Shown here: one piece after another, positions 5,018 to 56,527 of the stretch
Position numbering within the stretch: position 1 is the first letter of the stretch
Layout: each line of letters begins with the position of its first letter
Virus record (IMG/VR): IMGVR_UViG_3300035181_002344
DNA: 64,000 nucleotides
Source: a virus
Strand: one strand, 5' to 3'
Program-made: the position numbers and the translations under genes
The notes under the pieces: model-generated
Database searches by the model: none
What the model was told of the DNA's origin: nothing
Seen by the model: only the letters and a program-made list of their open reading frames with translations

Positions 5018-7099
5018 ATGCCTGTATATCGTAATTTACCTGGTATCAGAGTATTTAAAGAAGACCAAAATCTTTTGGTTGCCGAAATGATACCTGGCGA
5101 GCTAACAGTCGTAATTGGCACTTCCCCAGCAGGACCGCGAGAACAGCTATATCTTGTTAGAGATCCACAAACAGCGATGTTTACTTTTGATCCAGAGGGA
5201 TCTCAAGAAGGAACTTTAATTCAGGGAATGCTTGAAGCTGGCGAATCCGGTTCGAGATATCTTGCCTTATTTAGAATCGGTTCTACCCCTGCAATCTTAG
5301 ATTTTGTAAATGGATATAAAATACAAGTCGAAGATGGAAGCTCAGTCAAAATATTTTACGATTTTTCTTCTGGTGCGCATGATCTTAAATTAACACATGC
5401 AGTAACTGGAGAAGTCGTATATGATAATATCAACGGTATTGATACCGGATTTGCTATTGTAGATTTTAATAAAGAAATAACAAACTCTGCCGTCTCCATC
5501 GGCACAGAGAGTAGCCCCGTTGTCTTAAGTTCTGTCAACACTGCAATTGGTGCCGCAAACAGCATCACATATGCAGCAGGTGCAAAAACAATCAGCTATC
5601 CATCTGCTGTTTTACCATTAGCTGCTGGTATGATAATAACAATTACCGGCGGAGATACTGCAGATGATGGAGATTATGAAGTCCTATATGTTAAAGACGA
5701 AAAAGCTACATTGGTTAGTAAAAAAGTTGGTGACAAATGGGTTCCATTTGATGGATTTACTGCCAAAAATGCTGACGATACAAAAGGACAGATTAAAACT
5801 CGTTATTTTGCTCAAAATGATGGTACAAAATTAACTCAAATGGAAATGTTTGAAGCTCTTGCTAAGGCATATTTTGAGTTAGAAAATATCCAATGTGATA
5901 TGGTAATACCAGCTAGTGTTTATGTAGACGCGCCTAATTTAGTAAATAATATTGGACAAATAGCCGTACCTGCTGAAGAAGATTTTTTAGGCATGGTTTA
6001 TCAATTTGAACATGAAGGTGAGTTATTCCACATATGGAAGACCGGGGCTAATGTCTCTGATAGAATTGTACCAAAACCATATGCTTTAGGTATAGATGGA
6101 GTTCATGCAGAAAAGTTAGTAGATGGTAACTATCCTTATGAAGTTATCATGAATGATACTCCGCTTTCAGGTTTAACCGAAAGCGATAAAATAGTTAAGT
6201 TTAATGAAGCAAATTTTGCTCATCAATTAGGCGAATATCTTTATGGTTTGTCGCTTAATCAAACTGAAGCTCTTGGTTCAATTGCTATGAGACCACCAAC
6301 ATCATTGGTTAAAAGAGAAGTTGTTAAATGGGTTGGAAAAGCTCCAATAACTGATGCTAATGGAAACATAACGGTCTCTGGAACTGGATTACTTGGTTAT
6401 AAATATATGGCTGGTTCTACTGGTGTTAAAGCTGGTTTTTACCATACAGCTACTGGATTTGTTGATGGTGATGCAGTTTTGGATCATACTGGCAAACCTG
6501 TAGATTTAGGTAAATATTTAGTGATTACTGCTCTTCCATTGATTCATACTGGAGCTGCAGCTAATACTGCTGCTGGATATTTAGGTGGAGCTGCTGCTGA
6601 TTACGCTGGATTTATCATGAGTCTTGATGAAAAAGATGCCCCAACAAATAAAAAAATGAAATCTACTCTATCCTTGCCAATTGCATTGCAATTAAAGAAT
6701 AGCTTGATTGATCAACTTGTTGGAACTCGCTACACAGTATTCGCATCATCTTTTGATAATTCTGTAAAAGTTGTAGATGCACCTACAGCTGCTAGACCAA
6801 ATAGTGATTATACTAGAGTACTTACCGTTAGAATAGTTGCACTTGCTATTGATATGGCAAGAAAGATTGCCGAACCTTTTATCGGCGGCTTAAATAATGG
6901 TGAGATTCGTAACGCTCTTGAAGAACAAGAAAATTCGATGCTTCATAATTTGAAACAATTTGGGTATTTGAATGCTGGTTTAGCTCAAGTGCGTGCTACA
7001 CGTGATCAAGAAATCAAAGGTGAAGGTATAATGAGATTAATCTTAAATGTACCTGGTGAATTGAGACAATTATATATTTATGTAAATTTAACTAAATAA
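5018..7099 (+). CDS. Tail sheath protein
   Basis: 693 aa with SD GGAGG. N-terminal LPGIRVFKED..VVIGTSPAGP; C-terminal DYTRVLTVRIV..EPFIGGLN..GELRQLYIYVNL. Directly upstream of the tube gene. Confidence 0.88.
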   Translation: MPVYRNLPGIRVFKEDQNLLVAEMIPGELTVVIGTSPAGPREQLYLVRDPQTAMFTFDPEGSQEGTLIQGMLEAGESGSRYLALFRIGSTPAILDFVNGYKIQVEDGSSVKIFYDFSSGAHDLKLTHAVTGEVVYDNINGIDTGFAIVDFNKEITNSAVSIGTESSPVVLSSVNTAIGAANSITYAAGAKTISYPSAVLPLAAGMIITITGGDTADDGDYEVLYVKDEKATLVSKKVGDKWVPFDGFTAKNADDTKGQIKTRYFAQNDGTKLTQMEMFEALAKAYFELENIQCDMVIPASVYVDAPNLVNNIGQIAVPAEEDFLGMVYQFEHEGELFHIWKTGANVSDRIVPKPYALGIDGVHAEKLVDGNYPYEVIMNDTPLSGLTESDKIVKFNEANFAHQLGEYLYGLSLNQTEALGSIAMRPPTSLVKREVVKWVGKAPITDANGNITVSGTGLLGYKYMAGSTGVKAGFYHTATGFVDGDAVLDHTGKPVDLGKYLVITALPLIHTGAAANTAAGYLGGAAADYAGFIMSLDEKDAPTNKKMKSTLSLPIALQLKNSLIDQLVGTRYTVFASSFDNSVKVVDAPTAARPNSDYTRVLTVRIVALAIDMARKIAEPFIGGLNNGEIRNALEEQENSMLHNLKQFGYLNAGLAQVRATRDQEIKGEGIMRLILNVPGELRQLYIYVNLTK

Positions 7100-9779: not shown

Positions 9780-10280
9780 ATGGAAAAAAAAGAAACGACA
9801 TTTGCTGATGAAATGCTCAACTTAGAAAATAAACTTAATGCTAAAGAAGAAGCTTTAGAACAAGTTGAAGCAGAAGCAAAGGAAGAGTCCAAAAAGGCTG
9901 AGAAATCAGAAAGCGAATATTTATTAGAACTGATTTCTAAAGAAGGCGGACCAACAATGGATCAGATAGAGCAGTGGAAAGAAAAATTCCGTGACAAAGT
10001 CTATGCAGTTTATTTTGATAAAAAAGACTTTTATATTTTCCGCTATCTTACAAGAGTTGAATGGAAAGAAATTTCAGCACAAATTAGCCAAATGAAAACT
10101 CCGAATGAAACTATTATTGATGAGCTTATTGTGCAAAAAGCTCTCTTATATCCCACTTATGATACAGAATTACGCGCTTTAGCTGGCGCTGGTACATTTG
10201 AAACATTATCTAAACAAATACGCTATGCCAGCAATTTTGTTCCAGATGAACTTGCTCTTAGAATGATTGTAAAGATATAA
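9780..10280 (+). CDS. Tail assembly chaperone
   Basis: Lies between tube and tape measure; IEQWKEKF..YIFRYLTRVEWKEI..AGTFETLSKQIRYASNF. Confidence 0.65.
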   Translation: MEKKETTFADEMLNLENKLNAKEEALEQVEAEAKEESKKAEKSESEYLLELISKEGGPTMDQIEQWKEKFRDKVYAVYFDKKDFYIFRYLTRVEWKEISAQISQMKTPNETIIDELIVQKALLYPTYDTELRALAGAGTFETLSKQIRYASNFVPDELALRMIVKI

Positions 10281-10281
10281 T

Positions 10282-10854
10282 ATGAATGTTTTCGAGGCAA
10301 AAAGACGCTTCGGTACAATTTATATGATTGAGTTTGATGATGAGGCACGTGTTGTTTTTAGGCCGCTCTTGCATAAGGAATACAAATCTTATAGAGCGGT
10401 CCTAACCGCCATGCCGAACTATGAAGATTCAGCAATGGAGGATATATTTCTTAAATGCCTCATAGATATGACATATCCATATACTTTAGATGACGAAGAT
10501 AATCCTGTTGTTGATTTTGAATTATTGCCAGCTGGCGTAACTGATACCGTTGCTCGTTTTATATTTAATGTATCTGGTGCTGATTCACAAGATAAGTTTT
10601 TTAACGATCTTGCTGAAAGCAGAGTCTTTGCAAATTATGATCTTGAATATCGAGTATTTTCTATTATAGCCAATGCATTACGAGTTGATATTAGCAGTTT
10701 TGATGATTTAACATGGGAAGAAATACTTCGTCGTATTGCCCAAGCAGAATTAATATTATCGGGCAATATTCCTAAAATACCATTTTTACCTGCCGAACCA
10801 GAAGTAAAGAAATTAGATTTCGACGCAGATAACAAGGAAGAAGCTAAAAATTGA
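10282..10854 (+). CDS. Second tail assembly chaperone (paralog with C-terminal extension)
   Basis: VVFRPLLHKEYK..LPAGVTDTVARFIFNVSG aligns to the upstream gene; extra helical C-terminus. Confidence 0.6.
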   Translation: MNVFEAKRRFGTIYMIEFDDEARVVFRPLLHKEYKSYRAVLTAMPNYEDSAMEDIFLKCLIDMTYPYTLDDEDNPVVDFELLPAGVTDTVARFIFNVSGADSQDKFFNDLAESRVFANYDLEYRVFSIIANALRVDISSFDDLTWEEILRRIAQAELILSGNIPKIPFLPAEPEVKKLDFDADNKEEAKN

Positions 10855-13800
10855 GTCTTAGAGAAGACATAGAAAAACAAGAACATCAGAATTTTTCCAA
10901 AAGCCTTTCTGATTTAATGCTTACTGGTGCCGTTAATTTAGGTGCTTGGTATGCTTTTAATAAATATGCTGGTAGGGTTGAGGTTCCGAATGTTACTACT
11001 GGTAGTTTAAGGTTTATTGGGCTTCAATCTATAGGAGGACGTCCATGGTTTGAGGCCATGGGAAAAACAGCTGATAGCACTGCTAATTTACATGAAATTA
11101 TATTAAATGCTATTAAAGCTACAGAGGAAATGTTAAAAGTTCCTCGGGCTTTTTCTGCATATAATATAATGTCTGAGGGATATCTAAGAAATAACTTAGC
11201 AGAGTTAGAGCTTACGCAGCAAATGCTTCGCGGCCAAAGTCAATTCTTACGATCAATTTCTAATGGTAAGATTGACTATCGCATGCTTGAACAGGGGCTT
11301 AAGTGGAAAAATGGCAAGCTGTTTAATACTGCCGGCGAAGAGGTTCTGTCGAATGCCCGCCTTATGTTCAATTACTGGGGCATGACAGAAGATGCGTTGC
11401 GTGATAAAAAAATTGGTTACATATCAAGATATGCTCAAGCACTTTATCGTAATCGCGGATTAAAACCAGGCCCAACAGAACTTTTAGTTTATGGCGGACA
11501 GAAATGGTATCAGCCCTATATGCAAAAGGCAAATGCCATTGTCCGTGTTGGTGTTGAAAATTATCTTAAATTATTAGATGATCCATTTGAAGTTCTGCTA
11601 CGCCCGATAGAAAATGTCTTTGGTACAAGTAGTGCTATTCCAAAGTTTTTACGTAAAGGCTCCGAGTTTTATAATCGTATTGGTTTACGCAATATGTTTG
11701 GAGCTGGAGGCTGGCGTGTATTAGCTGAAGCTGATTCAACTTCTGCTTTATTGCGTAGGCATTTATTTAGAAACATGCTGCCTTCGGCATTTTTGTTCTT
11801 GGGTGCTATTCCGCTGGCAGATGAAATCCTTCGCAATACACCAATAATTAAAGATACACGTCTTGGTGGTGGTATTGGTGGTTTCTTTGCTAGTTTATAT
11901 CAAGATGTACGTAAAACTTATGCGAATATAAGTGATGCTCTTGGGCTGACATCGTATGCCAAAAAACAAAAAGAACAAGCTCCTGGTTCTACATCTGCAT
12001 TAGGATTACTTGCCTTCCCTGCTTCTTTAAGTATTGCTGCAACATCCGCTGCTGGCATACAGAATTTGATAGAAAAAGTGCCAGTTGGTACTAGTGGTGT
12101 TGCCCCGAAATATTTCAAAAATATCATTTCATCAATAGAAGCCAGTGATAATCTATTAAGCAAGGCATCTAAGGCTCTTAAATTAAATCAAGCTAGCAGA
12201 ACTGGTGCATATGGAATAACAGCTTTTGCTGCTGGTGCGTTATTAACACTTCCATTTTGGCCTGGAGTTTTTGGAAGTGAAAAAAGCTCAGAAGAATTAG
12301 AGCAAATATATTCTGGCGAACAATTAGTTCCTATCCGCCGAGGAAGATTCTGGGAATTTGGCATCACCCCTTATGAAGGCGATGAGATAAAGCATTATGC
12401 TCCGCATTGGACTGTAAGACTAATTACCGATGCTGCACGAAAGACTAAATTTGGACGCTTTTATGGCGATCCAATTGGTCGTATGTTACATAGGATCGTT
12501 GACCCTTACTTCCTTGAAAGGGAAATGGATCAAGAGAGACCTTATGTAGTTTGGGGACCTTCAGAACAAGGACTTGGATTTTTAGAAAAAGTTTTACAAC
12601 CAGTAAAAGAGATATTTAAGCCAACAATCGTTGCCCATCCAGAGGCTTTGGGTCAAGAGCCTCCAGGTTTATTAAAACGTGTTGGTCCAGAAGTTCCAGA
12701 ATCTTTGCAGGGCACTATCTATGAAACTAATACTCGTAATTGGGTTTCTACTCCACAATTACCTGATAACCTAAATTTATATGCATCGTCTACAGCTAAA
12801 TCTTTTACAGATACTTTAGGATTAGTAGGCTTTGCTTATAGTTCATTAGCGAATAATGTTATTAATGCTGGACAAGGATTAGGTGCGGAAGCTGTTTATG
12901 AAAGCTCTGGACGAATGTTTTCGCGTCAGAAAGCTTTCTGGGACCAAGAATTAGGTGGTATGTTTGGACTTAATGAATTTTATCGTAGATTAAATCCAGA
13001 TAGAGAATATGGCCCGGAATATATCTCGTCAGCAATAAGAAATACGCAGCCTTCTTGGATGCCTGAAGAGTTTCAATATGGCGATCCCTATGCTATGCCT
13101 CTGGGCGAAATGCGTGTGCCCGGCAGAGGCTATGAAGCATTACATCCAGAATTAGAAGGGATACCATATGAAGAGTATCCTTTAGTTCATAGATTAAATA
13201 TTTTACAAGATGTAGCACGCTTATCTCCTGCTTATTATAAAACTCTTAGTCAAGTCAAAAAAATAGCCGAAGCTGGCGATTTATCTTCTGACGAAGAGCA
13301 GATGTATAGAAATATATTAGCACGAGACGAAGAATATCGTAATGACGAATTAAATAGATTTGATCAAGCCGATGACAGCTTTTTCGGGCGATACTGGTTA
13401 GGCTTAAAAAAAATAGGCCGTTCATTACCAACTGAGCATCTTTATCCAATATCTCCTGCCCATAAATTTATGGGGCCTGGCACACCAGAAATGGATTATA
13501 AATCCTATGTGCTATTAGATTCTCCTTTTAAAAGTTGGTCTTCGCCAATTAGTGATTATATAGTACCTACATTTAATAGATTAATGGACGATATCACACT
13601 CGGCAACTATACTCCGCCTCGTACTACCCAACGAAGAGACATAGAAACTTATTTTCAACAGTTACAATTTGGTAAAAACCAACTCTTAAAAGAAAAAGCA
13701 GATGCTTTATATAATCAAGGAGATATTGAAGGAGCTAATTTCCTCCGTAGTGGTATTCGCAAAAGTATTTATGATCTTTCTCCATACGATGATATCGAAG

Positions 13801-14417
13801 ATTATAGAAATGTTTTATTACCATCAACAATGAAATATATATCTCCTATGGTTGATATTACTGATCAAGGGAGACGATCAAATATATTGCGAATGGTCGA
13901 TCCGACATCTCGTAGGATACTAAAATCTCAATGGCAAGTAACAGATTTACAAAGAGCTGGCAAATTAGAAGAAGCAGATGCTATAATGGGAAGTTTAAAG
14001 CCAAATACTGATGTGAGTTCGGATATTGTATTAAATACATTTGATCTTCCAGATAGAGATTTTACGGGATATGCCCCTGGTGTTGATTTAAATGCATTCA
14101 AGGTAAAAGTTGCTAATTCGCTTGGCCATAATATTAGAGATTTTAATTTATGGAAAGAAGATGAACGTCAAGCTCGTATTTTGGACATGATTAATAATGG
14201 CAGCCTTGCTGGTAATGATAAATATGAATATAAACCTCATAATAGAGAATTAGCGAAGAATCAGCTGCAAGAATATTTTAGAAAAATTGGTGCCACAGAT
14301 ATGCAAATTACCGCTCTTCCAACCAAAGGATACTCTACTGTTGAATTTCATGGTCGCGAAAATAATAACGACCGTATAAAAGAAGCAATGAGACAAGAAG
14401 GAATGATAGTTTATTAA
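10851..14417 (+). CDS. Tape-measure-like virion protein
   Basis: 1188 aa with a TTG start overlapping the previous TGA. Several Gly/Ala-rich hydrophobic segments (MLPSAFLFLGAIPL, ALGLLAFPASLSIAA, YGITAFAAGALLTLPFWPG). Follows the chaperone genes. Confidence 0.6.
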   Translation: MSLREDIEKQEHQNFSKSLSDLMLTGAVNLGAWYAFNKYAGRVEVPNVTTGSLRFIGLQSIGGRPWFEAMGKTADSTANLHEIILNAIKATEEMLKVPRAFSAYNIMSEGYLRNNLAELELTQQMLRGQSQFLRSISNGKIDYRMLEQGLKWKNGKLFNTAGEEVLSNARLMFNYWGMTEDALRDKKIGYISRYAQALYRNRGLKPGPTELLVYGGQKWYQPYMQKANAIVRVGVENYLKLLDDPFEVLLRPIENVFGTSSAIPKFLRKGSEFYNRIGLRNMFGAGGWRVLAEADSTSALLRRHLFRNMLPSAFLFLGAIPLADEILRNTPIIKDTRLGGGIGGFFASLYQDVRKTYANISDALGLTSYAKKQKEQAPGSTSALGLLAFPASLSIAATSAAGIQNLIEKVPVGTSGVAPKYFKNIISSIEASDNLLSKASKALKLNQASRTGAYGITAFAAGALLTLPFWPGVFGSEKSSEELEQIYSGEQLVPIRRGRFWEFGITPYEGDEIKHYAPHWTVRLITDAARKTKFGRFYGDPIGRMLHRIVDPYFLEREMDQERPYVVWGPSEQGLGFLEKVLQPVKEIFKPTIVAHPEALGQEPPGLLKRVGPEVPESLQGTIYETNTRNWVSTPQLPDNLNLYASSTAKSFTDTLGLVGFAYSSLANNVINAGQGLGAEAVYESSGRMFSRQKAFWDQELGGMFGLNEFYRRLNPDREYGPEYISSAIRNTQPSWMPEEFQYGDPYAMPLGEMRVPGRGYEALHPELEGIPYEEYPLVHRLNILQDVARLSPAYYKTLSQVKKIAEAGDLSSDEEQMYRNILARDEEYRNDELNRFDQADDSFFGRYWLGLKKIGRSLPTEHLYPISPAHKFMGPGTPEMDYKSYVLLDSPFKSWSSPISDYIVPTFNRLMDDITLGNYTPPRTTQRRDIETYFQQLQFGKNQLLKEKADALYNQGDIEGANFLRSGIRKSIYDLSPYDDIEDYRNVLLPSTMKYISPMVDITDQGRRSNILRMVDPTSRRILKSQWQVTDLQRAGKLEEADAIMGSLKPNTDVSSDIVLNTFDLPDRDFTGYAPGVDLNAFKVKVANSLGHNIRDFNLWKEDERQARILDMINNGSLAGNDKYEYKPHNRELAKNQLQEYFRKIGATDMQITALPTKGYSTVEFHGRENNNDRIKEAMRQEGMIVY

Positions 14418-14429
14418 AATGGGTAAACA

Positions 14430-17400
14430 ATGAGTGATAAACAACCTGGCGTTTTAGAATCATTAGGCATGGTTTCTGGCCTTGCTGCTGCTGGCTATTT
14501 GGTAAAAGAAATGGCTGGTGCTCGGACAAATATAAAAGAAGGCACAGAATTATTTAAGCAAGCAAGAGAGACATCAAAAATTAAAGCCGCTCAAAAAATA
14601 GCCCAAAAGAATATGACTAAATCCATACTTCCATGGTCTGAATTGGGTTTGGACAAATTGCCTAATATGCTTAAAGGAGCGCCAGTTGCAACAACCGTTT
14701 CTAATGCAAAAGATGTAGGAAGAGAGCTTGCCCGTGTTTTTGGTAATGGCGGACTATCTGAACATATGCAATTTTTAAATGAGCTTATAGAAATATCTAA
14801 AACTTTAACATCTCATAATCGCCAGCATACATTTAAGGTGTTGCAGCATATTGGAAATAATGCTTCTGTTCAGCTTATAATGAACCATGCTGGAGGCGAT
14901 CTAAGTATTAATTTTGGCATGATATCTAAGGGCGGCCGTTATGCGAGAACAAATTATGGATTAACATATGGGGTTGCTCCCAAATTTCTTGATCCAATGA
15001 CATACCAAAAATTAATGGCTAATCAAATTAAAACAGCCGACGAATTATATTCTGGTATTCTTGATATTAATACATTTATAGCCCGAGGTGTTCACGAAGA
15101 ATTAAAACAAAATGGCGTAGGCAATAGTTTACGGCGTGCTGTGGATATGGCAGCTTTAGCAGAACAAAACGTTGTTACAGTAAGAGTGCCAAATGTCTCT
15201 AACCCAGCTTTTCAAAGGGAAGCCGCCAGAGTTATTCCTTATCAGCCTACCGAAGAGGGATTAAAATTACTCACTCCCGCACTTGATTATACAACAGTTC
15301 AGCAAATGTGGCAAAATATTGAAAACTTAGAAGGTATTGATTTAGGCAAATTATTATTTGCTCGTTCAGAAAACGAAAAAGCATTTGGTGTATTTAATGA
15401 TCCGCATTCTTCATTTATCCATTCTATGAGCAATACTTCTTTAGAATCAAATAAAGCCATGCGTCAAGCTATTGGTAAAGAAACAATGATAGGTGGTGAT
15501 TTAGCAGCGGCTGGCAGATATGGTCAATTGGAAATAGCCGGTGGAATGGGTAATATAGCATCAATTCTTACATACACAGATACTGGTGATTATTGGAGAA
15601 GCTTAGGAATGGATGAGACATTAATTGATCAGGTTCTAGAATCAGGCTTTGGTTTAGAAAAAGGCGTTGGATTTGGATTAAAAGGCCGTGAAGGTGCTAT
15701 CATTACTGAAGGATTGGCCAAAAGCGATATGATAGATATCGTAACCCATAATGTTGATTTAACTGAAGCTCTTGATAGAGATCGAGTTGCTAAGTTTGTT
15801 GAAGATATCACTGCTCAATATATTGATAAAATCGCCATACAAAATACTGACAATCAAAATGTTATTGAATATACAAAGTCATTAATGTCTAAAAAACATT
15901 CTACGGTTATTAATGCAAATAAAGTTGCCAGACAACAAAAGAAATATAGTGCTATCAAAGATGTATTAACTGATACAGAAGTTAATCAACTCGCAGAGTT
16001 ATTTGGTGTTAAAGGCGATAGACGCTCTGTTCTATCTGCTATGAAATTTAAAAATATCCGTAGAGCCCTTAATACTTGGAAGAGAACAAAAGACGTCGAG
16101 AGTATCAATAAATTTAATTCCATTGCGAGCAATATATTTTCTAAAATTACCAAATTTGATACTGGTCATAAAACAATAATTAGCTCTGTTTTAGGCTCTA
16201 TTGGTGGTTTACATCGCAAGGGCGTTCTTACAAATACAGAAACTGGTTCTATTCGTTTTGGCGAATATGGCCAAGAAACAATTAGTGACATTATTTCTGG
16301 TGGTGATGTTCCTGGATTTAGAATTGTTGGTAGAGCAAAAAATAAGCTTGGCGATTATTTTAAAACATGGTTTGCTAAAAAACAAACTGCGGCACAAATT
16401 ATTTCTAATAGCGATGCTGAAAGGTTAATGAGAAATACATTTGGACTGCAAAGATTTATTCAAACTTCTAGTAATCCAGCTAGAGCTGCAAGATTGGTTA
16501 GTGAAAGATTGAAACGCGGACATTTTAGTAAACTTCAGAAAATAGTTGATTCATTTGGCGACGAATATAATTCTTTAAATTTAGATACCAGCAAAATGAT
16601 TTTTGCATCAGAAGGATATCGCTCTAATTCTCTTGGTGTTGTATCCTCTGTTTTAGAAGAAACTCTTATTAAAGATTTCGGTCAATCTCCAGAAGAATTA
16701 GCTAAATTGTCTCCCACTGAAATACTTGATTTTGCTAAGCAGCTCTATGAAAAAAATCGCGGCAATGCAAAATATGATGTAATGCTTGGCTCTATTATAG
16801 ACGAAAACAATCCTGTATATATGCCGGGTATAGGACATAACCCATATAGCATTGGAGAAGCTGGTTCTTTAGCTGGTCTAAAAATGAACAAAAATGTGAA
16901 CTTTTCACCAGAAATGGCCGAAAAATATGCTCAGCTAGGTATGCCTTCAATTTCTGATGCCATTATTAAGAATATTAATATGGAGGAATATCAACAAATA
17001 TATGATGCTTATGCGCCATTATCTAATCCTAGCTTAATTAAAGATGCCTTAGTTATCAATCAGGATGATATTTTAGCAGATAGAGAGCTATTTAATGTAA
17101 TGTTTAATAGTGACGATCCGAGAAAAGTGAGAAATGCTTTTGTTCAAGCAGCAAAGCAATTAGGTATAAAAGCCGCAGATAACGTTTCTGATAAAACAAG
17201 ATTGCTGATTAAGCTTAGCAATGATGCTACAATACCTATCTTAGATTTTACATCTAATTCATATGTTGGTATTGTTAATCCAATTTCTGGAGAGGAAACT
17301 GGGACTCAGTTGATCAGAAAACAATTATCTACATTAACAAAAAGGGTTATTACAGCTAACCCTGGAGATGAATTCAATGCTGCTTATGATGAATTGGTTA

Positions 17401-19124
17401 CCGGCGTAGGAAAGATATTATTCGATAAAAACATATTTACTAAGCAACCAATGAAGGGTGCCATATTAGAAGCTCGTCCTGGTCTTATTTTTAATACATC
17501 ATCCTTAGAAGCAATAGAAACCAATGCTAAACGCATGAATAAAATGGGTGCATTAGCAAATGTTATGAATAAATATGGTATTACCGCGACAGAACAAGGC
17601 ATAGATTTCGAAGCCTTTAGAGGTCGCTCTCTTGGAATTATGTCAGATGCCGATTTTTTTGATTTTATTGGTGGATCTGATTTTTATCAAAATAAGTTAC
17701 GTGCAGCTGGCTTGAATCCCAAAACCTCTGGGAATAAATTAAAAAGCTTTCAAAGAAGCCTTCTTTCTGAGCTGCATAATGCAAATAAGCAATATGCTTT
17801 TGGGGGACGCCATCCAGTTGGATATGGAGCTTGGCAAATTATAGCTGGCGAATCATTACTTAGGGATGTTTATACAGATGTCTATGGGCTTGGTTTAAAG
17901 GAAGCTGAGAATTTATCACAAAATATTATTCGTAAGGGTGGTCTTTATTTATCAGAATATTTGGAAACCTTATTAACAGCCGACTATGATCGAGATCAAA
18001 TTGTAATGGCTTTGGCTAATCAGCAGATGGGTAAGGAGATAGAATCTGCCCTAACAAATGAAGAATTTATTAAAAATGTTAGTGGCAAAGGTATTAAGGT
18101 TAAAAAAGCAAGCCATGGATCTATTGCTGAATTAATGGAAAAGCTAAGTCCATCTGAAGTCGCTAGAGCACACATTGATACATTAAATGAATCTATTGCA
18201 TTCTCTGCTGGCGTTGGTCCAATATCAAATAAATTGCGCAACCTAAGGCGATCTTATGGAGACGATATAGACAGAAAAATATCATATATGATTGATGTAT
18301 TACGTGAAAGCTCTATTGGTTCTAAGGGTTTCGTTGGTAAATCTGTAGAAAATTTAGAAACATTTAAATCAATATTCGATAGAGGCATGGACGTAGACAC
18401 GAGAGCGTCAACGTTAAAAAGTATTGTTTTGCATGGAGATGAAACTAACAATGCATTATATAACATTTTCAAAGATGTGAATGATGATTTCTATAAAGAT
18501 ATTATTAAGAATTATGATGAATTTATGGGTTCTCCAGAGGGTAAAATTGCCTCGCTTCAAAATACTATCCGCTATACAGACAAGTTTACTGATAAAGAGC
18601 TTAAATATTGGACAGAATTTGCTCAAAGTATGAGCGTTAAAAGAAATATTGATGCAGAAATTGGTTCGCTTGTTGATGTTGCTAATCAATCTGCGTCTAA
18701 ACTTAGCAAAGCAAGAAATATAGCCGCAGAGGTTGGTGAAACTGGATTTACCAAGGCTATTAAATCAAAGCCATTTTTGTTGCTTGCAGGAGGAGCTATC
18801 ACTTTAGCAATGTTAAAACCTGCGGATAATTCAATTAAACATCAAGATATACGCTCTGAATCTAAAATAAAAAAAGCACCAACTGCTGCCGAACCAATTG
18901 ATCCTCAAACTGGTATGGTCTATAAGCCTCAGCCACAAGCATATAATTTTCAAGTGAGAGGCAAAACTCCTCGTAATACAAGTATAGAGCAAATACGTAA
19001 CGATATTAATGGTTTTGGTATTCCTTTTGGTGGCACAGTGGTTAATAGAAGTCCTGGCGCTGACGCCTCTTATGTGCGTCAATTGCAAGAAACAAACGAT
19101 TCTTTAATGTGGAATAATGTATAA
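14430..19124 (+). CDS. Large virion protein, candidate single-chain two-barrel RNA polymerase
   Basis: 1564 aa. GGRHPV (R1127) followed by GLYLSEYLETLLTADYDRDQIVMAL (D1185/D1187/D1189) resembles beta' NRxP...NADFDGDQM. Weaker beta-like motifs lie upstream. Hydrophobic segments near both termini. Confidence 0.62.
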   Translation: MSDKQPGVLESLGMVSGLAAAGYLVKEMAGARTNIKEGTELFKQARETSKIKAAQKIAQKNMTKSILPWSELGLDKLPNMLKGAPVATTVSNAKDVGRELARVFGNGGLSEHMQFLNELIEISKTLTSHNRQHTFKVLQHIGNNASVQLIMNHAGGDLSINFGMISKGGRYARTNYGLTYGVAPKFLDPMTYQKLMANQIKTADELYSGILDINTFIARGVHEELKQNGVGNSLRRAVDMAALAEQNVVTVRVPNVSNPAFQREAARVIPYQPTEEGLKLLTPALDYTTVQQMWQNIENLEGIDLGKLLFARSENEKAFGVFNDPHSSFIHSMSNTSLESNKAMRQAIGKETMIGGDLAAAGRYGQLEIAGGMGNIASILTYTDTGDYWRSLGMDETLIDQVLESGFGLEKGVGFGLKGREGAIITEGLAKSDMIDIVTHNVDLTEALDRDRVAKFVEDITAQYIDKIAIQNTDNQNVIEYTKSLMSKKHSTVINANKVARQQKKYSAIKDVLTDTEVNQLAELFGVKGDRRSVLSAMKFKNIRRALNTWKRTKDVESINKFNSIASNIFSKITKFDTGHKTIISSVLGSIGGLHRKGVLTNTETGSIRFGEYGQETISDIISGGDVPGFRIVGRAKNKLGDYFKTWFAKKQTAAQIISNSDAERLMRNTFGLQRFIQTSSNPARAARLVSERLKRGHFSKLQKIVDSFGDEYNSLNLDTSKMIFASEGYRSNSLGVVSSVLEETLIKDFGQSPEELAKLSPTEILDFAKQLYEKNRGNAKYDVMLGSIIDENNPVYMPGIGHNPYSIGEAGSLAGLKMNKNVNFSPEMAEKYAQLGMPSISDAIIKNINMEEYQQIYDAYAPLSNPSLIKDALVINQDDILADRELFNVMFNSDDPRKVRNAFVQAAKQLGIKAADNVSDKTRLLIKLSNDATIPILDFTSNSYVGIVNPISGEETGTQLIRKQLSTLTKRVITANPGDEFNAAYDELVTGVGKILFDKNIFTKQPMKGAILEARPGLIFNTSSLEAIETNAKRMNKMGALANVMNKYGITATEQGIDFEAFRGRSLGIMSDADFFDFIGGSDFYQNKLRAAGLNPKTSGNKLKSFQRSLLSELHNANKQYAFGGRHPVGYGAWQIIAGESLLRDVYTDVYGLGLKEAENLSQNIIRKGGLYLSEYLETLLTADYDRDQIVMALANQQMGKEIESALTNEEFIKNVSGKGIKVKKASHGSIAELMEKLSPSEVARAHIDTLNESIAFSAGVGPISNKLRNLRRSYGDDIDRKISYMIDVLRESSIGSKGFVGKSVENLETFKSIFDRGMDVDTRASTLKSIVLHGDETNNALYNIFKDVNDDFYKDIIKNYDEFMGSPEGKIASLQNTIRYTDKFTDKELKYWTEFAQSMSVKRNIDAEIGSLVDVANQSASKLSKARNIAAEVGETGFTKAIKSKPFLLLAGGAITLAMLKPADNSIKHQDIRSESKIKKAPTAAEPIDPQTGMVYKPQPQAYNFQVRGKTPRNTSIEQIRNDINGFGIPFGGTVVNRSPGADASYVRQLQETNDSLMWNNV

Positions 19125-19133
19125 AGGTATAAA

Positions 19134-22100
19134 ATGGCAGATAATCAAGAACATATCTATAAAACATTAGAACAACAGGAAAAAGATTATTTTAACGAAA
19201 TCCACGCATATCTCTTTGGGATTAATCGTTCTGTTGATTTAAATAAATGGCCTAATTTTCTAAATACAGAAAGCTATATATATAAATATCGTGATTATAA
19301 TCAGCGTCTAATGCAAAAAATTAAAGATCAGCCTGGCGAGTTTATGATTAATGATATTTATCTTACAATTCCACCAGAAGCTATTAGTGTCGAGATTAGA
19401 AATAATACCATTGATATACCAATTTTACGTACATCGTCAAGCGTTAAATTAAATACAGGACATGGTGCTATTCAAGTTAGTATTTCTGCTGTTTTTACAG
19501 ATAATGAATTGCTTGGGGTTACGCTAGAAGAAGAATTAAAATATAAGCTTGTTCCACTTCTTACGCAAATGAATGTGATACCATTCGTGCATGTGAGAAA
19601 TAAATTTCTCAGAGAAAAAATCATTACCAATTATGCATCTATAATTAATAATGGTACTAAAGAAGTTATCAAAGAAGATAATACTTCTGGAGAAATATTA
19701 TTAACTTATGTCAGTCATTCAATAGCCACAGATCCAGAATTGCCACGTACTATAAGAGTGGAATTTAGCTTTCTTGTATTTAATTATCGTCCTTATATAT
19801 TGGATGTTGCTTATCCATATTATTATCAATTCACCGACAAAAAATCACTTGATACATTATATAGATTAAATGATAAACTATTAACTTTAGCAACTGTAAA
19901 AACTCCAGATTTATCTCTCCCCTTTTATGAATTTTATGCTCGAGAGTTTAAAAAACTTCAAGAAAATGGCGTGCTATTTTATGAGCATGATGAATTTTTA
20001 ACTACTAAAGCCGAATTGGGCGGCTATGATGATGATATAATGCAGATAGGTTTTTATCAGTATATCGAAGTTCCAAACCATTTATTAGACCCATCAATGC
20101 TCGATAAAGTTAAATCAATGGAAAAAAGCACTACATATGCTACTGTAGAAGATGAATATGGAGCGTTTATATCACGAGCTGGATTAAAACCATGGCAACG
20201 AGTTATGGCTGCCGATTCTGAGATTACTAGCCATTTTAAGGCTGCACATAATCGTACTTCTCCGCATAAAGGTGTTGATTTAAAACCGAAAGGTTCCACT
20301 TCTTCTACACCAAAGATATTGGCTGCTCATGGTGGAAAAGTTACAATGGGCTATCAACCACCAATTAATGACAAAAATGGGCCGCAACATGGTGGTGGTC
20401 ACTATATTTTTATTACAGATTCTGGGGCGGGTATCACAACTAAGTATCTGCATTTATCTCAGCAATTAGTGAAAAATGGTGATATTGTTAAGCCAGGACA
20501 AGTTATTGGTATAATGGGAAATTCTGGTTCTAATCCTGCACGCGGTACAATGGGAGCACATCTTGATTTTAGAATTATTGTTCCTGAAGGCGTTGCTAAG
20601 AACTTTGGGGATTATATTAAAAGCGGTAACGATTATTATGTAAATCCAGAAACATTTGATATTGAAAGGTATATTAATAATCATGATAATAAAGCGACGC
20701 CAGTTAATATTCCTAATAGACAAGAACTTAAAGACGTCGCTAATCAAAAGAAAGTTAATATTATTAAAGATCCTAATAAAGTATTATCGAACAAAGTAGC
20801 GCCACAAAGCAAAACAGAACTAAAGGCATATGAACAAGCAATTCTTGATTATATAAATACTCTGATTAAAAAAAATATCCATATCGAATATGTGCCAAGA
20901 GTTGGAGTCGATAATATTTCATATATACGTATACCAAGAATGGTCAGTATTAGACGCACCACGGGATTCACATTAACAGATATACAATATCTTGGCTATC
21001 ATCAACCAGCTATCGTTCCAATTGCAGGACATCGTCTTGCTACCCATCAATATATGGGCGGGCGTGTAAAACGTATGGCTTTAACGTTTATTGTTAGCGA
21101 AAATTATGGAGATTTTGAGTTACAAAAGCTACTTTCTGTTATTAATATATCAAATTATAATGCTATTCGCTTTAAGGAAATTGCTGCTTATGATGGGATT
21201 GAAATAAATCAGCCATTTATTAATACGATTTGTGGTGGTAAAAATTTTGTCATCGACAATATTAATATCACAACACATCCCGACATACCAGAAGGATCTA
21301 TTGTCACTATATCATTAACGGATTTTACTGGTGCTAAAGAAGTTGCACAGCGTGTGTTCGATATGGAACAATTGGCTCCGAACATGGATGTTACCGATTA
21401 TTATAAAACGCTTGCCAAAGAAATATTTTCTAAGGTTAAGCCAACCATAGAAGTGAATCCTAAAAAAGCAAAAAGTGAGTTTGTTGAAGGAGTGCTAGCT
21501 GGAATTGTGTATTCGCAAACAAATGATGTAGGTGCGATATCAAATTTATCTAAGCCATATAATAATTTCGAAAGTATTTATCTAGTTCCACAGAATCTAC
21601 AGCAATTTAACGATAATCCACAGCTAAAACAGCAAATTACAGAGCTGTTCGAGACCATTAATGAAGATTTGTCTAAATCGTGGCTTCAAAAGGTATTTAA
21701 TCTTTTTGCAAATAATGATGCAGAAAATCGTAATCCATTATCTGATGATTATGAAATATTTGAATATTTGACTATTGGTAAAAGTGTTAAAAATGCCGCT
21801 GATAGAACTTTAATCAAAAGCTTATTTTTTCCTAATAATAAAACTGGCGACAATAGTTTAACAAATAGTATAAACAAATGGCTCGACAAGCATTCTCATT
21901 ATGCATCTAATTCTAAAGATAGAAAACGCCAAAATTACTTTCCGAAAACAGCCGAAAAATATTCAGATGATGTTAAAAATTATTCTGCAAAAATATTATG
22001 GCCAGCATATATAGATTTTAATCTTCCGCCGACAATTAATCCAGATTATTATTTTTATCAGCCAACTAAGAATGCTCTTATTGACCCTAAAGAAAAGCGT

Positions 22101-24755
22101 ATTACAGAAAATGCTTTAGCCGCAACGATGAAAAAACATGATGCTTATATTAATTATTTTCGATCGCCATCTGAAAATGAAGCTATCCCTGTTGTTAAAG
22201 ATATGGAAACTTTATTATCAACGACAGATGATATATCTTTGGCCATTAATAAAAAGTCTCCTGTTACTTTTCAAGATATAGGCCTATCTGGTATGGGCTT
22301 ACAAGCTAGTAACTTACATTCTAGTAAGATCATTCTTGATTACAATGTCAATGAAACAGATAAAGACAACCCAATTAAACTTGAAGTTAATGTTAGCGAA
22401 CGCAACGAAGATAAAAGAGACCCTGATTATGAAAGGGTTGGAGAATTATATTTCTTCGATCATATAGAGTATACCAAGCATTTTTTATTCGATATAGATA
22501 ATACAGTTATTTCCGAAACGTCAGATTTTATATATGCTTTCCCCGTCTATAAAATATATTTTATTGAGGAGGACGATCAGGAATTTATGTATCCTTTTAG
22601 AATGCAAGATTTTAATGACCTTTTTGGTATAAATGCAGTACAAGAAATAAGATATGCTGAGATTAAAGATCAGCCAGCAGATTTACTTACTGTACGTTTC
22701 GTAGATATGACTGGTAAATTTACCTCTATTCGCTATAAACACTATGGGCATATAGAGGGTTCTAAGAAAAGCAGTACCATTGATTTTAATGTAGAAAATA
22801 ATATCAAAGGTCTCGTACTTAAAGAAGGAACTCGTGTGCAGTTTAGAGTTGGATATTCTAATAATATTAATAAATTGCCAATTCGTTTTAATGGATATAT
22901 AGTTTCTATTGGTGGCGAAGAAAATGAATTTGAAATGATGTGCCAGTCCTATGGTGCAGAATTAGTTCATGCTATTAAAGCTCCAAGCGAAGTAACACAA
23001 ATAGCTACATTTAATGCGGATACACATGATATTCTGCAATGGTGTATATCTCAGCCTGAGGTTAAGCATTTTGGTAGATGGAAAATGAATAATACGAGTA
23101 ATTTGACATTTTCGGATTCCACAAAAGGTACCAATTGGTTTAGATATAAAAGAATGGATCCAATGGGTCATGAATCAACATCATGGACATGGACAAAAGA
23201 TGAAGGAGAATTAAATTTTCTCTGTCCAGTCGAGAGTGATTTGCAAGGATTTAAAAACCTGCTTATTAATTTAAAGGCTGGCGGCCCACTTGCTGTATGG
23301 AAGGCTGTTTTTACATCTGTAAGTATGATTCCTGGAGCTGGTTCCTTGGCGAAAAAGTTTCTTGATTTCATAGGCGTTGGATACAGCTTTGGAAGTTTAA
23401 CAGATCTCTTATGGAGTAGATATTGGATAAAAAATACAACCGTATGGCAAATAGTTGATGAATTAACTTATCGTTATCCTGAATATATAGCCAAAGTTTT
23501 TCCTTATGATGACCGTGTAACATTATATTATGGCCCACGCCATGGTCTTTATTTTGCTACTCAATGGAATATTGGACAACTTGAAGATATTCAAGAAGCA
23601 AAGAATAAGCTAAATCAACTGCAAAATGATATCGACTGGAATAAAAAACAACTTGAGTCATACAAAGATACAGATATACAAAAAGCTTATACGTATGAAA
23701 ATTGGCTGGAAAAAGAATATCAGACAACTTACAAAACAAATGCCGTTATAGATGATTTAAGAAATAAGCTTAAAAAACCCACAACACACTATCATTTATT
23801 TGATTCTAATTCTAATTTGATTAGTAACCAAATAAAAGCAGATATTAAAGATGTATATACTGAAATTATGCTTGGTTATGGCACTGCAGATAATGATAAT
23901 GCTAAAAAAATGGCCAATGGCGAGATAGTAGAACCCTCCACAATAAATATGAGATTAAATAGCTATCTGCAACTAGAAGATATTAAAACAAAATATGTAC
24001 AATTTCCGAATGCTTCAAATATAGAAAATGCTTATATATATGGAACTAAAGTTCTTTTTCAGGAAGCCGAGAAACTCTATAAGGGTACAATTTCTGTTCT
24101 TGGCAATCCAGATGTTACTACTTTTGATAATGCATATGTAATTGATGATGCAACACAAACATATGGTCCTATTCGCGTAAGATCTCATGTCCTAAGCATT
24201 GCACCTGGTGAGGGTATGATATCAACCATTGAACCGGATATGCGTGTAAATTATAATCAGCTTAGTTTAATGTCAGTTCAAGATTATTCAGATTATGTTT
24301 GTAGCGCTAAAAGTGGCTTGCAAAGAATGAAATCTGGAGATTTTAATTGGATGAACTTGGGAATGGACGAATATGATCATGTAGCTATGAATGACTTTTT
24401 AAATGGCCGAACGTTACTTCCATCAGTTGGAGCTATTACTACAGGGATTGGTGCTGCCGTAGCTCTTGCAACTGGGGCGATTAGTGCAACCACTGGTTTT
24501 GTTGTACTTCCTGCTTTCTATTTGTTACTCGCCCAGATTTCTTATAAAGCTGTTTTAGCCGATAGCCACAGAGACCCGATTTATGTATCTCCATTAGTTC
24601 GCAGGGGAGCGCCATATTTATATGGACTTTCTACTTATAAAGTTGGCGGTTATGTGCAATGGACAAAAGATACGTGGGCTCAGGATATGAAGGATATTGG
24701 TGCGGCTGTCGAAATTCTAAGGGATTCAATTAGTACATTATTTGGCGAAAATTAA
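19134..24755 (+). CDS. Baseplate hub-like protein with M23 peptidase domain
   Basis: 1873 aa. M23 motifs HKGVDL..ILAAHGGKV..GGHYIFI..YLHLS..VKNGDIVKPGQVIGIMGNSG..HLDF at about 20220-20660. Hub-like motifs RVGYSNNINKLPIRFNGYI, CQSYGAEL and YKGTISVLGNP. Confidence 0.75.
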   Translation: MADNQEHIYKTLEQQEKDYFNEIHAYLFGINRSVDLNKWPNFLNTESYIYKYRDYNQRLMQKIKDQPGEFMINDIYLTIPPEAISVEIRNNTIDIPILRTSSSVKLNTGHGAIQVSISAVFTDNELLGVTLEEELKYKLVPLLTQMNVIPFVHVRNKFLREKIITNYASIINNGTKEVIKEDNTSGEILLTYVSHSIATDPELPRTIRVEFSFLVFNYRPYILDVAYPYYYQFTDKKSLDTLYRLNDKLLTLATVKTPDLSLPFYEFYAREFKKLQENGVLFYEHDEFLTTKAELGGYDDDIMQIGFYQYIEVPNHLLDPSMLDKVKSMEKSTTYATVEDEYGAFISRAGLKPWQRVMAADSEITSHFKAAHNRTSPHKGVDLKPKGSTSSTPKILAAHGGKVTMGYQPPINDKNGPQHGGGHYIFITDSGAGITTKYLHLSQQLVKNGDIVKPGQVIGIMGNSGSNPARGTMGAHLDFRIIVPEGVAKNFGDYIKSGNDYYVNPETFDIERYINNHDNKATPVNIPNRQELKDVANQKKVNIIKDPNKVLSNKVAPQSKTELKAYEQAILDYINTLIKKNIHIEYVPRVGVDNISYIRIPRMVSIRRTTGFTLTDIQYLGYHQPAIVPIAGHRLATHQYMGGRVKRMALTFIVSENYGDFELQKLLSVINISNYNAIRFKEIAAYDGIEINQPFINTICGGKNFVIDNINITTHPDIPEGSIVTISLTDFTGAKEVAQRVFDMEQLAPNMDVTDYYKTLAKEIFSKVKPTIEVNPKKAKSEFVEGVLAGIVYSQTNDVGAISNLSKPYNNFESIYLVPQNLQQFNDNPQLKQQITELFETINEDLSKSWLQKVFNLFANNDAENRNPLSDDYEIFEYLTIGKSVKNAADRTLIKSLFFPNNKTGDNSLTNSINKWLDKHSHYASNSKDRKRQNYFPKTAEKYSDDVKNYSAKILWPAYIDFNLPPTINPDYYFYQPTKNALIDPKEKRITENALAATMKKHDAYINYFRSPSENEAIPVVKDMETLLSTTDDISLAINKKSPVTFQDIGLSGMGLQASNLHSSKIILDYNVNETDKDNPIKLEVNVSERNEDKRDPDYERVGELYFFDHIEYTKHFLFDIDNTVISETSDFIYAFPVYKIYFIEEDDQEFMYPFRMQDFNDLFGINAVQEIRYAEIKDQPADLLTVRFVDMTGKFTSIRYKHYGHIEGSKKSSTIDFNVENNIKGLVLKEGTRVQFRVGYSNNINKLPIRFNGYIVSIGGEENEFEMMCQSYGAELVHAIKAPSEVTQIATFNADTHDILQWCISQPEVKHFGRWKMNNTSNLTFSDSTKGTNWFRYKRMDPMGHESTSWTWTKDEGELNFLCPVESDLQGFKNLLINLKAGGPLAVWKAVFTSVSMIPGAGSLAKKFLDFIGVGYSFGSLTDLLWSRYWIKNTTVWQIVDELTYRYPEYIAKVFPYDDRVTLYYGPRHGLYFATQWNIGQLEDIQEAKNKLNQLQNDIDWNKKQLESYKDTDIQKAYTYENWLEKEYQTTYKTNAVIDDLRNKLKKPTTHYHLFDSNSNLISNQIKADIKDVYTEIMLGYGTADNDNAKKMANGEIVEPSTINMRLNSYLQLEDIKTKYVQFPNASNIENAYIYGTKVLFQEAEKLYKGTISVLGNPDVTTFDNAYVIDDATQTYGPIRVRSHVLSIAPGEGMISTIEPDMRVNYNQLSLMSVQDYSDYVCSAKSGLQRMKSGDFNWMNLGMDEYDHVAMNDFLNGRTLLPSVGAITTGIGAAVALATGAISATTGFVVLPAFYLLLAQISYKAVLADSHRDPIYVSPLVRRGAPYLYGLSTYKVGGYVQWTKDTWAQDMKDIGAAVEILRDSISTLFGEN

Positions 24756-55346: not shown

Positions 55347-55781
55347 CTATATGACGATTACGCGATTTATATCTTTCTCAATTACAAAATTGGCAGCTGT
55401 TTGTATGTATTCTGGCGAATACTCTATTTTATCTTGAACTAATATCACAATATCATATAAACGGCCTCTGAATACCTCTCCAAGAGTCGCATTTTTAATA
55501 TCTACAGGAACAAACGTCCACTGCCCTGCTCGATTGTAGATTCCATTCTCAGCGAATGAATTTGACATCGGATATCCATTATCTGCGAATACTTTCTTTA
55601 ATTTGAAATGCATATATTCTAGCATAACATCATTTCCAATAACCATTCCATGAAATTTTGGCGTTGTCTTGCGTAATTCTGCATCGTCCATCGTTAGCCA
55701 ATTATCTGGGAGACGGTTTACCTCCCAGTATGGCTGAAAATATTCGAGTATTCGCTCTTCAAATGTTTGAATTTTGTCCAT
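55347..55781 (-). CDS. Hypothetical protein
   Basis: 144-aa ORF coupled to the kinase gene. Confidence 0.55.
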   Translation of the reverse strand: MDKIQTFEERILEYFQPYWEVNRLPDNWLTMDDAELRKTTPKFHGMVIGNDVMLEYMHFKLKKVFADNGYPMSNSFAENGIYNRAGQWTFVPVDIKNATLGEVFRGRLYDIVILVQDKIEYSPEYIQTAANFVIEKDINRVIVI

Positions 55782-56527
55782 TAGACCGCCTTTTTATTGT
55801 CGGACCAAATATTAATAATATTATCAAAAGTTTCAAGCGATGATGCACGAAGTTTATCTATATCCTTGTCCATGCAATCAATTGTAAAATCAGCTTTTAT
55901 TTTATCCAGCTCAATTTCTGATGGATGCTTGGGGTCTCTGTCTGTAGCTAAATATTGAGTTCCATCCTGCTTCCATCTATTAACTCTGACGAAAAAGCCA
56001 TTTATTGATTTTATGAATTTGTATTCATTTAGGAATCGCGTATCTGGAATTAAAATAATAGCATTTGGATCCATATCTTCTATTTGCTTTTTAATAATAT
56101 TGACCCAATAATTGCCGCCAAAGTATGTTCTGCGATAATCAGTTCCCCAAAACTGTAAAATCTCAGCGTCTTTCTCTTCCATCCGATGATATACGTCTAT
56201 GTTTCTATCTTCGAATATTTTATGAAGTCGGGGAACTTCTTCAATAGAATAATGTCCATAAATAGCTGTTGATTTATCTGCTTTAAAATATTTCTCAAAG
56301 ATCATGTATTCGTTTACTTGTTTGCGCGTGTTAAATATGCGTATAGCAAGAGGATTATTTTCATCTTCTCTTGACACCTCTGCATATAAAGCATCTGCCC
56401 AATGCATAATAATAACATCGCCGTAAACATCTTTTATGTATCTAGCCGCATAATCTTTACCCTGTCTAGCTTTGTTTCCAAAGCCTATTACTAGTGGATA
56501 TTGTTTATTTTTCATCTGCGTCCTCAA
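55781..56527 (-). CDS. Deoxynucleoside monophosphate kinase
   Basis: GFGNKARQGKDYAA P-loop-like motif, WADAL, ILQFWGTDYRR, IPDTRFLNE and HPSE. Confidence 0.85.
   Translation of the reverse strand: MRTQMKNKQYPLVIGFGNKARQGKDYAARYIKDVYGDVIIMHWADALYAEVSREDENNPLAIRIFNTRKQVNEYMIFEKYFKADKSTAIYGHYSIEEVPRLHKIFEDRNIDVYHRMEEKDAEILQFWGTDYRRTYFGGNYWVNIIKKQIEDMDPNAIILIPDTRFLNEYKFIKSINGFFVRVNRWKQDGTQYLATDRDPKHPSEIELDKIKADFTIDCMDKDIDKLRASSLETFDNIINIWSDNKKAV

Follow-up and report, generated by a model that had tools for sequence, protein, structure and literature searches.

Does the virus of IMG/VR record IMGVR_UViG_3300035181_002344 carry an RNA polymerase (RNAP) in its tail? The question is raised by P0001, a gene encoding 1564 amino acids (aa) at positions 14430-19124 (+ strand) of the 64,000-nucleotide (nt) stretch analyzed here (hereafter, the window). 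It lies among the tail genes, and the initial annotation had read it as a divergent fusion of the RNAP beta and beta' subunits. Virion RNAPs allow a phage programme to start without the host enzyme and make the phage insensitive to host transcription shut-off, and the known two-barrel examples are few (the multisubunit enzymes of phiKZ and AR9, crAss gp66, and gp96 of Thermus phage P23-45). Based on motif conservation, fold prediction, and gene order, we estimate a probability of about 0.55 that P0001 represents a new family of virion-delivered single-chain two-barrel RNAPs.

The open reading frame (ORF) is intact in the window, is bounded by stop codons on both sides, and stands alone, without a tape-measure fusion. 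All five peptides first quoted from the 1564-aa gene are present at the residues and nucleotides assigned to them, including E421, K645/K651 within aa 637-658, the segment at aa 1000-1018, R1127 at nt 17808, and D1185/1187/1189 at nt 17982-17996. The gene has the following features:

14430..19124, + strand: whole P0001 gene, candidate virion-delivered single-chain two-barrel RNAP (ORF; 11 distinct homologues)
14451..14510, + strand: N-terminal Gly/Ala-rich hydrophobic helix, aa 8-27 (conserved block in the consensus of family alignment A1)
15684..15722, + strand: beta-like motif 1, G-x-E-G-x-x-I-S, aa 419-431, with E421 (resembles beta N-F-E-D-S-I-L-V-S, E. coli E813, by eye only)
16350..16382, + strand: beta-like motif 2, G-D-x-x-K-x-W-x-x-x-K, aa 641-651, candidate basic pair of the second barrel (conservation and spacing)
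17022..17438, + strand: aa 865-1003, loose alignment to the N-terminal part of beta' upstream of the barrel (model)
17439..18095, + strand: beta'-type double-psi beta-barrel (DPBB), aa 1004-1222 (predicted fold)
17808..17816, + strand: R1127-x-P1129, counterpart of beta' N-R-A-P, E. coli R425/P427 (invariant in all homologues)
17982..17996, + strand: D1185-Y-D1187-R-D1189, candidate Mg-binding catalytic triad (invariant; alignment offsets)
18750..19121, + strand: aa 1441-1564, most conserved family block and candidate docking or membrane-anchor module (column conservation)

A divergent family with invariant catalytic motifs

An exhaustive phmmer search with aa 300-1499 against 1.8 billion representatives recovered ten relatives of P0001, nine of them 1390-1582 aa in length, and IMG/VR contributed one further distinct homologue. 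The family thus comprises 11 distinct homologues (16-33% identity to P0001, 1390-1582 aa). Only the exhaustive search succeeded: word-indexed homologue searches returned no relatives, megablast and tblastn against cultured phages gave no match, and a metagenome scan yielded nothing beyond two of the related genomes (L002 and L003) again. No family match to P0001 was found in Pfam, PHROGs, or by phmmer against the PDB, and a PDB profile search with alignment A1 gave no match. Even at E <= 10, Pfam did not match two sub-regions of P0001 or any of the 10 family members, and PF00623 (RNA_pol_Rpb1_2) and PF00562 (RNA_pol_Rpb2_6) did not match anywhere in the genome. Alignments of the family to E. 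coli rpoB, rpoC, and a flap-deleted beta core using hhalign were not significant, language-model Atlas look-ups produced no usable match, and BLASTP against the two neighbouring giant proteins detected no paralogy. Our preferred reading makes P0001 the founding member, in the window, of an uncatalogued group of nucleotidyl transferases with two barrels on a single chain, most likely DNA-dependent RNAPs.

Invariant columns number only 20 in the conservation alignment (10 sequences, 18-32% identity to P0001), and they include R1127, P1129, D1185, D1187, and D1189, five residues that are also unchanged in all 11 distinct homologues. The match of P0001 to the RxP...DxDxD arrangement, previously judged good, thus persists when conservation among homologues is checked. 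The pattern is RHP-55-DYDRD in P0001, and in every member the RxP motif lies 49-72 residues upstream of DxDxD. All members satisfy [RK]xPx{20,100}DxDxD, the filter used by Chaban et al. for the catalytic chains of two-barrel RNAPs (PMC10770324, Suppl. Data 4). A single match of this kind is not rare (5.9% of P0001 shuffles); in the aligned sequences it is conservation across the family, not motif occurrence alone, that exceeds chance. A 248-aa ORF elsewhere in the window (55781-56527, - strand) also fits the filter (RDP-20-DKDID), probably by chance given its size and the 5.9% background rate.

The fourth residue of DxDxD varies within the family (R, Q, D, F, L, or N; never I or V). Non-glycine residues at this position are found among active or accepted enzymes, such as AR9 non-virion RNAP (nvRNAP; DDDKD) and phiKZ-like enzymes (DNDKD; PMC10770324, Suppl. 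Data 4), and the catalytic motif of crAss gp66 is DFDID (bioRxiv 10.1101/2020.03.07.982082). The DYDRD loop of P0001, which had been noted as unusual, therefore falls within the range of proven phage RNAPs and is not disqualifying. A calcium-binding DxDxDG loop was ruled out, as the sixth residue is never G.

The predicted beta'-type barrel

Residues 380-1400 were modeled from a 13-row alignment (model 1; mean predicted local distance difference test [pLDDT] 64.5, predicted template modeling score [pTM] 0.40), with pLDDT mostly 70-88 across aa about 830-1210. The fold prediction and Foldseek comparison, suggested earlier as a check, place a beta'-type DPBB where it had been proposed. About 46 of the top 50 Foldseek matches in the PDB are chains of RNAP beta' or of the largest subunit, among them AR9 nvRNAP and yeast Pol III, and no match to model 1 in this database fell below E 1e-3. 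The ESM Atlas returned an RNA_pol_Rpb1_2/Rpb1_3 cluster (template modeling [TM] score 0.63 by target, 138 aa, root-mean-square deviation 3.2) and a viral PF00623 cluster. RNAP matches outrank generic DPBB proteins with ~50 more residues aligned, and the beta' matches to the barrel span 134-141 residues.

The structural alignments place the conserved residues in the register of beta'. At the C-terminal end, model positions 835/841 are paired with E. coli 489/495, which sets D1185/1187/1189 on D460/462/464 (numbering verified on the rpoC sequence). The triad also falls on D739/741/743 of T. thermophilus and D535/537/539 of M. tuberculosis, which we take to be the catalytic triads of those enzymes. 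At the N-terminal end, aa 1004/1006 are paired with E. coli 344/346, which sets N1001..K1005 on N341-L-L-G-K345, so the offsets reproduce the NLLGK-like register proposed for the start of the barrel. The KNIFTKQPMKG motif at this site is present and its register with beta' is borne out, but it is only partly conserved in the family (mostly F-T, sometimes K). The barrel has about 65 residues more than multisubunit beta' barrels. Downstream of it, where two-barrel RNAPs have the bridge helix and trigger loop, lie a 32-residue helix (aa 1243-1274) and the conserved residues E1293, G1297, K1299, and R1325, for which the single structural match is not convincing; about 160 aa follow the polymerase-like core. 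Based on the model, we consider it very probable that P0001 contains a beta'-like catalytic barrel.

Beta-like motifs upstream of the barrel

Both beta-like motifs contain strongly conserved residues. E421 of motif 1 shows at least 90% conservation and is replaced once, by D. In motif 2, K645, W647, and K651 are invariant in a further alignment (A3) and at least 90% conserved in A1, and the second Lys lies nine residues past the Asp, as in E. coli beta GDKMAGRHGNK. Motif 2 is preceded by a five-strand sheet (aa 594-639) in a second model (model 2, aa 370-720). Between motifs 1 and 2 lies a helical stretch of ~150 aa with little conservation, at the site of the flap in beta. Comparison of the P0001 family using hhalign does not recover RNAP beta, a test of low power, given that the clearer motif of a 1030-aa protein encoded elsewhere in the genome (see below) reached only E 0.41 against rpoB. 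A complex prediction of aa 990-1240 with aa 385-700 scored 0.00 and gave no answer; the fold of the partner is uncertain, and this result counts neither way.

Terminal helices and position in the tail module

A hydrophobic segment occurs within aa 6-35 in eight of the nine full-length family members. The C-terminal block (aa 1441-1564) contains a hydrophobic helix that is kept across members (aa 1449-1465, ~100 residues from the C-terminus) and is followed by a conserved tail of ~100 aa; column conservation reaches 0.47-0.67 in this block compared to about 0.3 elsewhere. Hydrophobic helices at both termini fit an ejected protein and would be unusual for a cytoplasmic polymerase.

The structural module runs in the order major head protein (400-1674), sheath (5018-7099), tube, two chaperone-like ORFs, 1188-aa gene, P0001, 1873-aa gene, baseplate wedge protein, and fibres. 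P0001 is separated from its neighbours by 12 nt upstream and 9 nt downstream, and sites resembling promoters or terminators are no more frequent at its borders than background. Sites of the form AATCGAT-N16-TTGATT lie near structural operons. The flanking genes are:

10851..14417, + strand: upstream 1188-aa gene in the tape-measure position (after chaperone-like ORFs 9780-10280 and 10282-10854)
19134..24755, + strand: downstream 1873-aa hub-like protein with M23 peptidase (aa 377-482) and lysozyme/endolysin-like regions (Pfam PF01551, endolysin PHROGs)

The placement of P0001 between a tape-measure-like gene and a baseplate hub in the initial annotation is therefore broadly right. The 1188-aa protein is orthologous to gp035 of the cultured Acinetobacter phage vB_AbaM_ME3 (ME3; E 6e-52) and to gp145 of phage 0305phi8-36 (E 4e-28), and the 1873-aa protein to ME3 gp037 and 0305phi8-36 gp147. 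The same order (a gene of ~1170-1200 aa, one of ~1430-1580 aa, and a hub lysin of ~1750-1860 aa) recurs in four related genomes (L001, L002, L003, and L015), and the first two genes are present in L017, a contig that ends shortly past the P0001 homologue. With ME3 and the phage studied here, the slot is conserved in at least seven genomes.

In ME3, the slot is occupied by gp036 (1603 aa, "hypothetical"), whose BFVD model is the best viral Foldseek match to the P0001 model (E 3.5e-6, probability 1.0). At residue 1217, the equivalent position, gp036 has REP-40-DHDQD, and no similarity between it and the P0001 family was found by hidden Markov model (HMM) search or hhalign. At probability 0.98 each, Foldseek also matches a protein of Microcystis phage MaMV-DC (E 3.6e-3) and the "minor tail protein" of a siphovirus (E 1.3e-2). 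The occupant in 0305phi8-36 is gp146 (2537 aa, "hypothetical tape measure protein"), and, as annotated in the record, mass spectrometry places both gp145 and gp146 in virions. Gene position and synteny make virion association of P0001 likely.

Three further observations concern the neighbouring genes. The 1188-aa protein is unusually conserved (37-40% identity to its closest relatives; 63 invariant columns in six sequences) and has a Gly/Ala-rich hydrophobic stretch and the motifs P-S-W-M-P and R-L-P-G-R-G-Y-E-A-L-H-P-E-L-E-G; it is unlike a typical low-complexity helical tape measure and has no family match. In L015, the closest relative, the hub counterpart carries Phage_lysozyme2 instead. 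In L017, an inserted PhoH-family gene (250 aa; L017:4905-5657) separates the tape-measure-position gene from the P0001 homologue.

Other polymerase candidates in the genome

The window is part of a single 154,304-bp contig (34.6% G+C). The contig ends (1-185 / 154120-154304) overlap by 185 nt with one mismatch, and the genome is therefore probably complete, either circularly assembled or terminally redundant; the source collection's own class is linear and about 75% complete.

Two additional proteins encoded outside the window have polymerase-like motifs, and neither has a Pfam or PDB match. The first, of 1030 aa (107831-110923, - strand), combines RNP-55-DTDGD with a beta-like G-L-K-G-V...P-V-Q-M-V-I-G-P. 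The spacing from RNP to DTDGD is the same as in P0001, and the barrel regions of the two proteins align over 87 columns from RxP to DxDxD (hhalign, E 0.01, single comparison). Relatives are found in the L001 genome (E 6e-141) and in ME3, where the counterpart is seemingly in two parts, gp152 and gp154, with an endonuclease gene (gp153) in between (218959-226678 of NC_041884); this arrangement suggests an intron or homing-endonuclease insertion. Judging by its motifs, the 1030-aa protein is likely a single-chain non-virion RNAP. The second protein, of 874 aa (148658-151282, - strand), has R-L-K-A-G-N-S-I-G-K-G and K-Y-P-32-D-G-D-G-D (N-V-D-G-D-G-D). Cultured phages, L001-L003, ME3, and 0305phi8-36 contain no relative of this protein, and its motifs suggest that it may be another YonO-like polymerase, the second such candidate in the genome.

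If a phage encodes polymerase candidates of its own for use inside the cell, their genes must first be transcribed by something else, which fits a virion enzyme. The presence of the 1030-aa candidate alongside P0001 likewise fits a scheme of virion and non-virion polymerases like that of P23-45, phiKZ, and AR9.

Proposed mechanism and alternative explanations

We propose that P0001 would work as follows. The upstream module (aa about 400-660) would supply the second barrel and complete a two-metal active site, in which E421 and K645/K651 would contact the incoming nucleoside triphosphate and the variable helical insertion of ~150 aa would take the place of the flap. P0001 would be co-expressed with the tail genes and become part of the virion, where it would probably sit in or at the tail lumen with the tape-measure-position protein. 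Expelled on sheath contraction, it would be held at the membrane by the hydrophobic helices conserved at both of its termini and would transcribe the first entering DNA without host RNAP, as proposed for P23-45 gp96, after which the 1030-aa and 874-aa candidate polymerases may take over. On sequence and model, P0001 is reasonably likely to be an active polymerase.

Several points weigh against a virion-delivered polymerase. The proposal of a fused beta and beta' chain stands for its beta' half, with a beta'-type barrel predicted and RxP/DxDxD invariant, but the beta barrel was not recovered: the motifs are conserved, yet pLDDT stays below 50 at both of them in either model, and fold searches with the aa 370-720 model recovered no second barrel, only helical-hairpin and coronavirus-spike-type noise. 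No sequence method (Pfam, PHROGs, PDB phmmer/hmmsearch, or hhalign against rpoB, rpoC, and gp66) ties the family to RNAP. The occupant of the slot in 0305phi8-36, gp146, has no DxDxD and no detectable similarity to P0001, so that its virion evidence carries over by position only. The proposed polymerase activity and packaging rest on prediction, sequence, and gene position, and a globular core of ~1000 aa would have to travel through the tail tube.

The alternative that survives best, although unlikely, is that P0001 is a tail-lumen or ejection protein (tape-measure-like or channel-forming), in which a polymerase-derived barrel has been repurposed, e.g., for gripping or threading DNA, without RNA synthesis. 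The virion "hypothetical tape measure protein" without DxDxD in the 0305phi8-36 slot is consistent with this explanation, as are the unconfirmed second barrel and the combination of hydrophobic helices at both ends with a conserved C-terminal tail, which is typical of ejected tail proteins. A remnant, however, would not be expected to keep three Asp, RxP, and two Lys at ~20% identity, and the tape-measure position is already occupied by the 1188-aa gene.

Slightly less likely still is a genuine two-barrel RNAP that is not packaged and instead acts inside the cell late in infection, e.g., on late genes or for special transcripts. It shares all of the catalytic-site evidence, and virion association of the family members is indicated by position only. 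Nevertheless, the gene is embedded in a tail operon (12- and 9-nt gaps, no border promoter or terminator) in at least seven genomes, and an enzyme made only with the tail proteins would come too late for most transcription. Non-packaging would also leave the terminal hydrophobic helices unexplained in a genome that has two other intracellular polymerase candidates.

We regard it as improbable that P0001 is a two-barrel enzyme with another template or product, i.e., a QDE-1-like RNA-dependent RNA polymerase (RdRP), a primase-like enzyme priming the entering genome, or a PolD-like DNA polymerase. The two-barrel superfamily does include RdRPs and archaeal PolD (PMC7824862), and template and product are not distinguishable from sequence and model. 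However, the top structural matches are all DNA-dependent RNAP beta', with no PolD or QDE-1 among the best 50 of either search, and the virion enzymes of the two-barrel type described so far are DNA-dependent RNAPs.

Tail proteins often include DPBB lytic transglycosylases, and the 3D domain takes its name from three conserved Asp. Despite these general likenesses and the adjoining peptidase and lysozyme hub, a cell-wall-degrading DPBB (MltA 3D-domain, RlpA, or expansin type) that helps the tail to cross peptidoglycan is highly improbable, as no Pfam 3D or DPBB_1 match was found even at E <= 10, the top 50 structural matches, led by RNAP beta' over 134-141 residues, contain no MltA, RlpA, or expansin chain, and a contiguous DxDxD preceded by RxP is the RNAP arrangement.

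If P0001 is a virion-delivered RNAP, the coupling of polymerases to the ejection apparatus would be a recurrent solution, and a very divergent family would become available for tracing how two-barrel polymerases evolved. A physical question would arise as well, namely how a core of ~1000 residues passes through, or unfolds in, the tail tube. The finding would also assign a function to a large "hypothetical" gene of ME3-like jumbo phages and related uncultured phages, and because ME3 is cultured, the reading is directly testable there. More broadly and tentatively, contractile-tailed phages like 0305phi8-36, ME3, and Ma-LMM01 may carry a separate tail-module beta-beta' RNAP that is shot through the tube with the tape measure and anchored at the membrane by hydrophobic helices at both ends, where it would transcribe the incoming genome and perhaps help to draw it in. 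Two-barrel RNAP delivery would then have a third independent route, besides capsid cargo in crAss and the tape-measure fusion of P23-45, and one from the multisubunit-like branch rather than from that of QDE-1 and crAss.

Comparison with known polymerases

In the literature searched, we found no contractile-tailed phage described as having a two-barrel polymerase that stands alone in the tail module. The survey of phages with two RNAPs (PMC10770324) does not include ME3, and a jumbo-phage survey credits 0305phi8-36 with a YonO-like enzyme only (PMC7824862). The comparison first drawn with crAss-like phages and P23-45 needs revision, as crAss gp66, QDE-1, and P23-45 gp96 are all absent from the best structural matches, which are led by multisubunit-type beta' (bacterial, phiKZ, and AR9 nvRNAP).

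Multisubunit beta' (bacterial and phiKZ/AR9 nvRNAP) is the best structural match for aa 1004-1222 and, loosely, for aa 865-1003, with the Asp triad and the NLLGK-like start in register. In multisubunit RNAPs, however, beta and beta' are on separate chains that are matched by PF00623/PF00562, whereas P0001 is one chain that matches neither and has hydrophobic termini. YonO (Bacillus prophage SPbeta) and the YonO-like enzyme of 0305phi8-36 are of the single-chain two-barrel type, as is proposed for P0001, and come from phages with contractile or long tails (PMC7824862). By description, YonO-type enzymes are set apart from P0001 by their size (~800-900 aa), their non-virion nature, their DxDGD motif, and their location outside the structural module. 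ME3 gp036 shares with P0001 the same slot between orthologous neighbours (gp035 and gp037).

The gp66 protein of phi14:2 is 2180 aa long, comes from a podovirus, has the motif DFD[IV]D, is closest to QDE-1, and has a connector of ~140 aa between its barrels (bioRxiv 10.1101/2020.03.07.982082). Both gp66 and P0001 are large single chains for which two barrels have been proposed, with a non-glycine fourth residue, and both are undetectable by ordinary sequence searches. They differ in that the motif regions of P0001 are about 350 aa apart and its best matches are multisubunit-type beta'. In crAss-like phages, gp66 is virion-borne, and the same is probable for P0001 from its gene position. Comparison of the P0001 family with gp66 gave an hhalign probability of 0.1% and nothing by hmmsearch, and DFD[IV]D is absent from the family.

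P23-45 gp96 is proposed to exit via the tail and transcribe the first genes; it is a single 5002-aa protein of a non-contractile tail, in which the RNAP is fused to the N-terminal end of the tape measure and metallopeptidase and transmembrane parts are also present (PMC10770324). It resembles P0001 in having a two-barrel-type catalytic chain in the tail module, RxP...DxDxD, and a second, non-virion two-barrel RNAP in the genome (in the P0001 genome, a candidate). In contrast, P0001 is a separate gene of a contractile-tailed phage, with the tape-measure position and the M23 peptidase in neighbouring genes, and it has DYDRD where gp96 has DFDGD. No sequence link between P0001 and the P23-45 chains was found, nor are they among its best structural matches. 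Thus, P0001 belongs to neither the crAss nor the P23-45 family, and in its proposed mode of working it is akin to the virion RNAPs of both.

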